Shown here: positions 33,965 through 36,112 of the stretch, in pieces | How the letters are laid out: each line of letters starts with the position of its first letter | Numbering within the stretch: the first letter of the stretch is position 1 | Origin: Escherichia coli | GTDB lineage: Bacteria > Pseudomonadota > Gammaproteobacteria > Enterobacterales > Enterobacteriaceae | Assembly (NCBI RefSeq): GCF_024700885.2 | Contig: NZ_CP117016.1 | Direction: 5' to 3' (one strand) | Length of the DNA: 64,000 nucleotides | Notes under the pieces: generated by a model | Seen by the model: the letters and a program-made list of their open reading frames with translations, nothing else | The model's database searches: none | Told to the model about the DNA's origin: nothing | Position numbers and translations under genes: made by a program

Positions 33965-36112
33965 TTACGCCAGTGCCGCTTCGCGCAGGCGAGTTTTCAA
34001 CTTGTTGTACTCGTCAATCACGTACTGCTCGGCGGCGCGCTGATCGGCGATCGGCTCGACGCGCACGGCGCAGTATTTGTATTCCGGCGTTTTCGTAATC
34101 GGGCTTAAGTTTTCGGTAACCAGCTCGTTACAGGCACCAATCCACCACTGGTAGGTCATGTAAATCGCCCCTTTGTTCGGACGATCGCTGACCTGCGCAC
34201 GGGTGATAATTTTGCCTTTACGCGAGTGCACCCAAACCAATGCCTCATCTTCAATACCCAGACGTTTGGCGTCTTCGGTATTGATTTGTGCGTAGCCAGG
34301 TTCATCAGCCAGCGCCGCCAGTGCCGCACAGTTACCGGTCATCGAACGGCAAGAGTAGTGACCAACTTCACGCACCGTTGACAGTACCATCGGGTACTCG
34401 TCGGTGAGTTTGTCGATTGGCGCTACCCAGTCGCAGGTGAAGAACTGCGCCAGACCGTTCGGGGTATCAAACTTCTCTTTAAACAGATAAGAAGTCCCCT
34501 GATCGGCATCTGAAGTATCGCGGCAAGGCCACTGAATGAAGCCCAGTTCGCCCATTTTCTCGTAAGTCGCACCGTAGAAATCCGGGCACAGATGACGCAA
34601 CTCATCCCAGATCTCCTGGGTGTTGTTGTAGTGCATCGGATAACCCATACGAGTGGCGATTTCACTGATAATCTGCCAGTCCGTTTTCAGATCCCACTTC
34701 GGTTCAACCGCTTTGAAGAAACGCTGGAAGCCACGGTCAGCCGCAGTAAACACGCCTTCATGCTCGCCCCACGACGTTGACGGTAAAATAACATCCGCCG
34801 CCGACGCGGTTTTGGTCATAAAGATGTCCTGAACGATAACCAGTTCCAGATCTTCAAAGGTTTTACGTACTGCCGACAGCTCCGCGTCAGTTTGCAGCGG
34901 ATCTTCGCCCATAATGTACGCGGCACGCACTTCACCATGCGCTGCGCGGTGCGGCAGCTCGCTGATGCGATAACCGGTATGAGCAGGCAGGCTTTCCACG
35001 CCCCAGGCTTTGGCGAATTTCTCGCGGTTAGCCGGATCTTTCACGTACTGGTATCCCGGATACGTATCCGGCAGCGCGCCCATATCGCAGGCACCCTGTA
35101 CGTTGTTCTGACCACGAACCGGGTTAACACCCGCATGTGGCTTACCGAGGTTACCGGTCAGCATCGCGAGGCTGGTCAGAGAACGCACGGTTTCCACGCC
35201 CTGGTAGAACTGGGTTACACCCATGCCCCACAGGATGGCGGCGCTTTTCGCCTGGGCATACATCCGTGCCGCCTGACGAATCTCATTGGCGCTGACGCCG
35301 GTGATATCTTCAACCGACTCCGGCGTGTAGCCTTCAACGATTTTACGATACTCTTCAAAGCCTTCTGTACGGGAAGCGACGAATGCTTTGTCGTACAGAT
35401 TTTCTTCAATAATGACATGGCCCATCGCATTCAACAGCGCGATGTTCGAGCCGTTTTTCAGTGCAATGTGCATGTCCGCAATGCGCGCGGTTTCAATTTT
35501 GCGCGGATCGCAGACGATAATTTTCGCCCCGTTACGTTTAGCGTTAATTACGTGATTCGCCACGATTGGGTGGGAATCCGCCGGGTTGTACCCGAAAACG
35601 AACACTAAATCGGTATTATCAATTTCGTTAATAGCATTGCTCATTGCGCCATTACCGACCGATTGGTGCAGACCTGCAACCGATGGGCCGTGTCAGACAC
35701 GAGCGCAGCAGTCAACGTTATTGGTACCAATAACGGCGCGCGCAAATTTTTGCATTACATAGTTGGTTTCGTTACCCGTACCACGCGAGGAGCCGGTCGT
35801 CTGGATGGCATCCGGACCGTACTTCTCTTTGATGGCGCTCAGGCGCTCGGCAACGTAATTCAGTGCCTCATCCCAGGAAACAGGTTCGAGTTTGCCGCCA
35901 CGCTGGCGACGGATCATGGGGGTTTTCAGGCGCGGGGTCAGGATCTGGGTATCGTTAATGAAATCCCAGCCATAATAACCCTTCAGACACAGGGTACCCT
36001 GGTTGGTTTTCCCCTGCGCTGCCTCCGCCCGGACGATTTTGCCGTTATCGACGACCAGGTTGATTTTGCAACCTGATGCGCAATAGGGGCAAACCGTGAC
36101 GACTTTTTTCAT
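33965..36112 (-). CDS. fdhF: Formate dehydrogenase H (selenocysteine, molybdopterin)
   Basis: Two in-frame ORFs (35693..36112 and 33965..35644) separated only by TGA; joined length 715 aa. N-terminus MKKVVTVCPYCASGCKINLVVDNGKIV matches FdhF, with Sec at codon 140. Confidence 0.95.
35650..35695 (-). other. fdhF: In-frame UGA selenocysteine codon (35693-35695) plus SECIS hairpin region immediately 3' in the mRNA
   Basis: TGA read directly in the fdhF frame; the bacterial SECIS is known to lie directly downstream of the UGA. Confidence 0.8.

Follow-up and report, generated by a model that had tools for sequence, protein, structure and literature searches.

One of the questions raised by the fdhF gene of Escherichia coli is whether a stop codon lying inside its frame ends the protein or is read as an amino acid. 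The gene encodes formate dehydrogenase H (FDH-H), in which selenocysteine (Sec) 140 ligates the molybdenum of the bis-MGD cofactor. We looked at this gene in a stretch of 64,000 nucleotides of E. coli DNA (contig NZ_CP117016.1), which as a whole is called here the window, and in which a mechanical list of open reading frames presents fdhF as two frames rather than one.

The fdhF reading frame

The ORF list of the window holds two minus-strand frames at this locus, 35693..36112 (139 amino acids and a stop) and 33965..35644 (559 amino acids). Continuous translation from 36112 down to 33965 gives 716 codons, in which stops are found at codons 140 and 716 only. It is thus one in-frame TGA, at 35695-35693 on the minus strand, that splits the ORF, and the original prediction, which had put the split of fdhF down to a TGA at codon 140, was right on this point. 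The codons around the site are TGC TGC GCT CGT GTC TGA CAC GGC CCA TCG GTT GCA GGT CTG CAC CAA TCG GTC GGT. The features of the locus, together with those found in the rest of the window and in a matching genome, are collected in Table 1.

Over 24 kb the window matches E. coli MLI114 (NZ_CP117013.1) with 100% identity, and in that record RefSeq annotates one fdhF CDS of 2148 nt between yjcO and mdtP. The surrounding 2.4 kb is found in 5419 of the 5426 complete E. coli genomes, annotated as fdhF. For the protein queries against TIGR01591 and the PDB a Cys was put at position 140 of FdhF. The NCBIfam model TIGR01591 (formate dehydrogenase subunit alpha) matches residues 6-685 with 1094.1 bits (curated cut-off, 666.25), and the match runs unbroken across codon 140. 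The FDH-H structures in the PDB (1aa6, 1fdi, 1fdo, 2iv2, and 7z0t) align with FdhF over residues 1-715, and PDB residue 140 is a non-standard one (X). Compared with chain A of 1aa6, FdhF is identical in 713 of 715 residues, the two differences being S276N and A418T.

Table 1. Features of the fdhF locus, of the rest of the window and of the sel genes (window coordinates unless an accession is given; nt are counted from the U of the UGA).
Feature	Position	Strand	Basis
fdhF, formate dehydrogenase H (selenocysteine- and molybdopterin-containing), 715 codons and stop	33965..36112	-	frame, RefSeq, TIGR01591, PDB
UGA codon 140, recoded as selenocysteine	35693..35695	-	translation; aligned to PDB X140
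Full Rfam SECIS_2 (RF01988) match, including the outer 5-bp helix that spans the UGA	35646..35700	-	covariance model
SECIS hairpin proper, nt 3-42: lower stem, internal mismatches, upper stem-loop	35654..35693	-	MFE and Rfam consensus structure
Minimal 17-nt upper stem-loop, nt 15-31, GGUUGCAGGUCUGCACC	35665..35681	-	sequence positions; SelB-binding role per PMC8659212
Sigma-54 -24/-12-like element TGGCAT-N5-ATGCA, upstream of fdhF and outside the recoding signal	36164..36179	-	position and known promoter
Terminator-like hairpin and T-run, 14 nt past the fdhF stop codon	33930..33951	-	consensus scan only
Terminator-like hairpin after mdtP	36303-36278		consensus scan only
sraL	15210-15350	-	Rfam gathering-level match, 153 bits
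naRNA4 (two) and STnc630	53243-53323, 55800-55877, 61544-61709	+, -, +	Rfam gathering-level matches (64.6 and 92 bits naRNA4; 181.8 bits STnc630)
tRNA-Sec (selC), anticodon TCA	NZ_CP117013.1 72497-72591		ARAGORN
selA and selB	NZ_CP117013.1 152037-155269
selD	NZ_CP117013.1 2380006-2381049

The SECIS element

The original prediction had located the recoding signal at 35645-35695, in agreement with the Rfam SECIS_2 match listed in Table 1. This match to RF01988 scores 87.1 bits against a gathering threshold of 70, with an E-value of 1.8e-17 for the whole 64-kb window and 4227 families, and it covers model positions 1-55 of 55. It is the sole RF01988 match, no other SECIS match being found in the 64-kb window, and it lies far beyond chance. 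The element thus belongs to RF01988 by its score, by its full length, by an in-frame UGA with a hairpin directly 3' of it, and by the presence of nt 15-31 with U17, G23, and U24.

In PMC8659212, which cites Liu et al. (1998), the E. coli fdhF SECIS is described as 40 nt long. Its upper stem-loop covers nt 15-31 and begins 11 nt past the UGA; U17 is bulged, G23 and U24 are located in the loop, and the SelB contacts are U17 and G23. Counted from the U of the UGA, these determinants are found in the window at 35679 (bulged U17), 35673 (loop G23), and 35672 (U24). The minimum free energy (MFE) fold of the 51 nt that start at the UGA has -14.9 kcal/mol and shows a lower stem with mismatches (nt 3-13/33-42), an upper stem (nt 15-21/26-31) with one bulged U, and a GGUC tetraloop at nt 22-25, which agrees with the published fdhF hairpin. 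The 55-nt element is the same as in K-12 MG1655 and as in 5411 of 5420 E. coli records, and the whole fdhF gene is less than 99% identical in 1471 E. coli records.

Another question is whether the stability of the hairpin can serve as a test for the element. The original prediction had proposed a stable hairpin 3' of the UGA as its check, and only one part of this check holds: the stem-loop with its apical GGUC loop does form, whereas its stability is uninformative. Compared with dinucleotide shuffles the energy of the hairpin has z = 0.10, and 103 of the 200 shuffles fold as well, so that no extra stability for its composition is seen. Homologous loci that carry a Cys codon in place of the TGA fold at least as stably, with a mean MFE of -15.6 kcal/mol vs. 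-14.0 kcal/mol for the Sec loci. Since both the shuffles and the Cys-codon paralogues are equally stable, the folding test has little power, and folding energy was dropped as a discriminating test. The element is told apart by the sequence of the GGUC loop and of the U bulge and by their register relative to the UGA, together with a local freezing of synonymous sites.

The pairing itself can be followed across homologues. In 33 distinct Sec-type sequences 92% of the cells form standard pairs, vs. 23-49% when the partners are slid, and within the columns of nt 15-31 U17, G23, and U24 show no variation. When U17 is taken as the bulged base two compensatory pairs are found, G15-C31 to U-A and U18-A29 to A-U, in seven Pasteurellaceae sequences. 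The register of the Rfam model, in which U18 is bulged, was also considered and rejected; it gives one compensatory pair only and leaves seven unpaired cells at pair 22-34, which the U17 register turns into the second pair. Because this second compensatory pair appears under the U17 bulge, the comparative data favor the bulge as it was published. Double changes are seen in 2 of the 20 pairs, a count that is not above the shuffle control for these 33 sequences; covariation is modest here, as the element hardly varies and is at the same time part of a coding sequence.

Two variants of the SECIS were observed among the Sec loci. The first, GGUUGCAGGUCUGCAGCG, which encodes LQRS in place of LHQS, is found in Edwardsiella, Morganella, Proteus, and Hafnia (loci L034, L042, L046, L049, L050, L110, and L117). 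In this variant a wobble pair between U17 and G30 is possible, and the bulge of the MFE fold shifts to G16, which fits poorly with the report that U17 has to be bulged. The second, UGUAACAGGUCUGCUCA, is found in Pasteurellaceae (loci L056, L086, L090, and L122) and carries an A.C mismatch at pair 19-28 of the upper stem; the canonical hairpin is absent from its MFE structure (-8.6 to -9.2 kcal/mol), and the TGA codon and the GGUC loop are kept.

Sec and Cys loci across species

Homologous loci were collected by a pattern scan with one genome per species. The pattern, TGYTGYGCNCGNGTNTGNCAYGGNCC, stands for CCARV-[TGN]-HGP and leaves the hairpin free past its first eight bases. The scan gave at least 120 loci, of which 118 were usable; among those listed the equivalent of codon 140 is TGA in 56 and a Cys codon (TGC or TGT) in 62, and one further locus has TGG.

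The two groups differ in the hairpin. Among the matches listed, GGTC (GGUC in the RNA) is found at loop nt 22-25 in all 56 TGA loci vs. 2 of the 62 Cys loci, an MFE structure with a 4-nt loop at nt 22-25 is formed in 52 of 56 vs. 4 of 62, and the mean fraction of Rfam pairs formed is 0.93 vs. 0.64. They also differ in their synonymous sites. Among the matches listed, the third-position entropy in the 14 codons after the UGA is 0.54 bits in Sec genes and 1.47 bits in Cys genes, vs. 1.21 and 1.28 bits in the 35 codons upstream and 1.25 and 1.34 bits in codons +17 to +59. In the Ala-Gly-Leu codons of the apical stem-loop the third positions are invariant in the Sec genes listed. Synonymous freezing is thus found only at the SECIS and only together with a UGA, and therefore selection acts at the RNA level; it is purifying selection on the RNA that is specific to the UGA-bearing homologues.

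These data also bear on the hypothesis that a near-cognate tRNA, such as that for Trp or Cys, decodes UGA140 without SelB or the SECIS, and that the hairpin is a mere by-product of the coding sequence. Such an explanation would fit a hairpin that is no stabler than shuffled sequence. Yet, it does not fit a synonymous freezing that is confined to the 14 codons after the UGA in UGA-bearing genes only, nor a GGUC loop that is kept in register in every TGA locus listed and in very few of the Cys loci. Moreover, in PMC4513850 and PMC8659212 a construct without the SECIS is the control with low read-through, and mutations of U17 or G23 abolish read-through. Near-cognate decoding is therefore extremely improbable, and we hold to the reading in which the SECIS directs the recoding of UGA140.

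In many Enterobacterales genomes Sec (TGA) and Cys (TGC/TGT) FdhF-type paralogues with the motif CCARV-x-HGPSVAGL are present together, for example in Citrobacter werkmanii (L007/L008) and Enterobacter sp. Bisph1 (L009/L010), and in Pluralibacter gergoviae (L036-L038) two copies have TGA and one has TGC. In Hafnia paralvei a TGA copy (L050, 944-969) and a TGC copy (L051, 1656-1681) share the contig NZ_LXET01000052.1. At the SECIS position of this Cys copy there is a perfect 7-bp hairpin, UGUUGCA-GGCC-UGCAACA, with the loop GGCC and not GGUC, which may be left over from a conversion of Sec to Cys or may have arisen by chance.

The sel genes

Selenocysteine insertion of this type depends on the sel genes, which the original prediction expected elsewhere in the genome. 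They were read in the MLI114 genome (NZ_CP117013.1), whose 24-kb identity with the window is described above; selA, selB, selC, and selD are all present there and none of them carries a pseudogene flag. With K-12 queries, 5425 of the 5426 complete E. coli genomes have selAB, 5425 have selD, and 5424 have selC, so the expectation was borne out in MLI114 and in at least 5424 genomes of the species.

The surroundings of selC in NZ_CP117013.1 also contain other genes. Near it, at 48117-68013 (18117-30980 and 31030-38013 in the numbering of locus L125), we observed iatC, a 12.9-kb gene for an inverse autotransporter adhesin, and eilA, and the same region contains type III secretion translocon and tip genes that are ETT2-like. 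A fragment of rhuM adjoins the tRNA-Sec gene, a typical arrangement where an island has inserted at selC.

Annotation of fdhF

The original prediction also held that automated callers split this gene, and the public records agree with it, as the exact fragments of 139 and 559 amino acids are deposited as separate proteins. An exact copy of the 139-amino acid N-terminal half (35696-36112, minus strand) is found on at least 1000 contigs of the public protein collection. The 559-amino acid C-terminal half (33968-35644, minus strand) has an exact copy on 53 contigs and falls in a cluster of 11,377 members, which includes GenBank entries of 559 amino acids named ‘Formate dehydrogenase H’ from Raoultella, Citrobacter, Klebsiella, and Enterobacter. 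PGAP (NCBI/RefSeq) calls fdhF correctly.

These fragments, like the two frames in the ORF list, might be taken as a sign that fdhF is a pseudogene in this strain, with the TGA as a true nonsense mutation and the two ORFs as what is left of the gene. The comparison with K-12 b4079 speaks against this. The two genes share 99.07% nucleotide identity and differ at 20 nt, of which 18 are synonymous and two change an amino acid; the differences are found on both sides of the TGA, and none is located in or near the recoding signal. Because 18 of 20 differences are synonymous and flank the TGA on both sides, the whole fdhF frame is under purifying selection. As, in addition, the TGA stands at the same codon in 56 homologues among the matches listed and in essentially all E. 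coli, the SECIS and a complete sel machinery are present, RefSeq puts no pseudogene flag on the gene, and a full-length 80-kDa selenoprotein has already been detected for the identical K-12 site (PDB entries), we give a decayed fdhF next to no credence.

The site itself adds nothing in the way of discovery, and its practical value is in annotation, where fdhF has to be entered as a single CDS whose codon 140 is marked as a translation exception. The comparative data can serve as a clean control, in which a SECIS is recognized by the register of its loop and bulge and by suppressed synonymous variation, and not by the stability of its hairpin.

Recoding mechanism

Based on these results we take the site in the window to be that of selenocysteine insertion in E. 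coli fdhF, for which we estimate a probability of about 98%. The original prediction had described it as a classic SelB-dependent site, a view that is upheld by the RF01988 score of 87.1 bits, by an element identical to that of K-12, by U17, G23, and U24 in register, and by residue X140 in the PDB.

The mechanism that fits these data would start with a ribosome that reaches UGA140 of the fdhF mRNA, where the hairpin directly 3' would offer its 17-nt apical stem-loop, with U17 and G23/U24, to the C-terminal domain of SelB. SelB would carry GTP and Sec-tRNA(Sec), the product of selC with the anticodon UCA, on which SelA would have converted serine to Sec using selenophosphate supplied by SelD. 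The tethered SelB complex would then bring Sec-tRNA(Sec) to the A site, so that the UGA would be read as selenocysteine and not terminated by RF2, and translation would run on to a 715-residue formate dehydrogenase H with Sec140 ligating the molybdenum. For the K-12 site, whose sequence is identical, it was shown that SelB, loaded with GTP and Sec-tRNA(Sec), attaches to the apical stem-loop and competes with RF2 in bringing Sec to the A site (PMC4513850). The efficiency of recoding is ~30-40% both in vivo and in vitro, as measured with fdhF codons 130-179 or 130-156, with UGA140 and the SECIS at codons 141-153 (PMC4513850). By analogy with this identical site, SelB binding and the incorporation of selenium at residue 140 would be expected in the present strain as well.

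A further idea is that the fdhF SECIS may in addition be a selenium-sensing signal for pausing or attenuation, by which the fate of the mRNA would follow the supply of selenium. No specific feature of the sequence points to such a role, which would not be peculiar to the window, and we regard it as very unlikely. In the fdhF genes of Treponema primitia a selenium-dependent uncoupling of transcription and translation has reportedly been seen (PMC3892789).

Surroundings of fdhF

Expression of fdhF is under the control of FhlA and sigma-54. Upstream of the gene the element TGGCAT-N5-ATGCA resembles a sigma-54 -24/-12 promoter, and it is preceded by repeated TCGTCA/TGACGA motifs at about 36225-36275 on the minus strand. 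A consensus scan of the window for sigma-54 promoters gave 19 matches vs. 26 expected, which is not above chance, and the element was assigned from its position and from the known promoter. Element and repeats together are consistent with an FhlA-dependent fdhF promoter. The candidate terminators and the small RNA matches of the window are given in Table 1.

Comparison with known systems

In eukaryotes and archaea the recoding of UGA to Sec is also directed by an RNA structure, the SECIS. These elements are located in untranslated regions and their recognition is of the kink-turn/SBP2 type, whereas the SECIS of fdhF sits within the coding region, right behind the UGA, and makes direct contact with SelB (PMC4513850). 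Other bacterial SECIS families include SECIS_3 (RF01989) and the SECIS of E. coli fdnG and fdoG, in which likewise an in-frame UGA in the gene of a formate dehydrogenase alpha subunit is directly followed by a SelB-binding hairpin. On the element of the window the SECIS_3 model scores 35.8 bits against a gathering threshold of 63, so the element is not a member of that family; fdnG and fdoG themselves lie outside the window.

The Cys FdhF-type paralogues of Enterobacterales share the active-site motif CCARV-[U/C]-HGPSVAGL and are often found in genomes that also have the Sec form. They differ from it by TGC or TGT in place of the TGA, by a GGUC loop that is present in only 2 of 62 among the matches listed, and by the equivalent 14 codons, which vary freely at synonymous sites. 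The closest system is the UGA140 and SECIS of fdhF in K-12 (b4079), which has the same 55-nt element, the same codon position 140, and the same neighborhood, gltP-yjcO-fdhF-mdtPON, and which differs from the gene in the window at 20 nt outside the recoding signal (with S276N and A418T). The site in the window is the founding example of bacterial selenocysteine recoding, already known, and in form it is identical to the characterized site of K-12.
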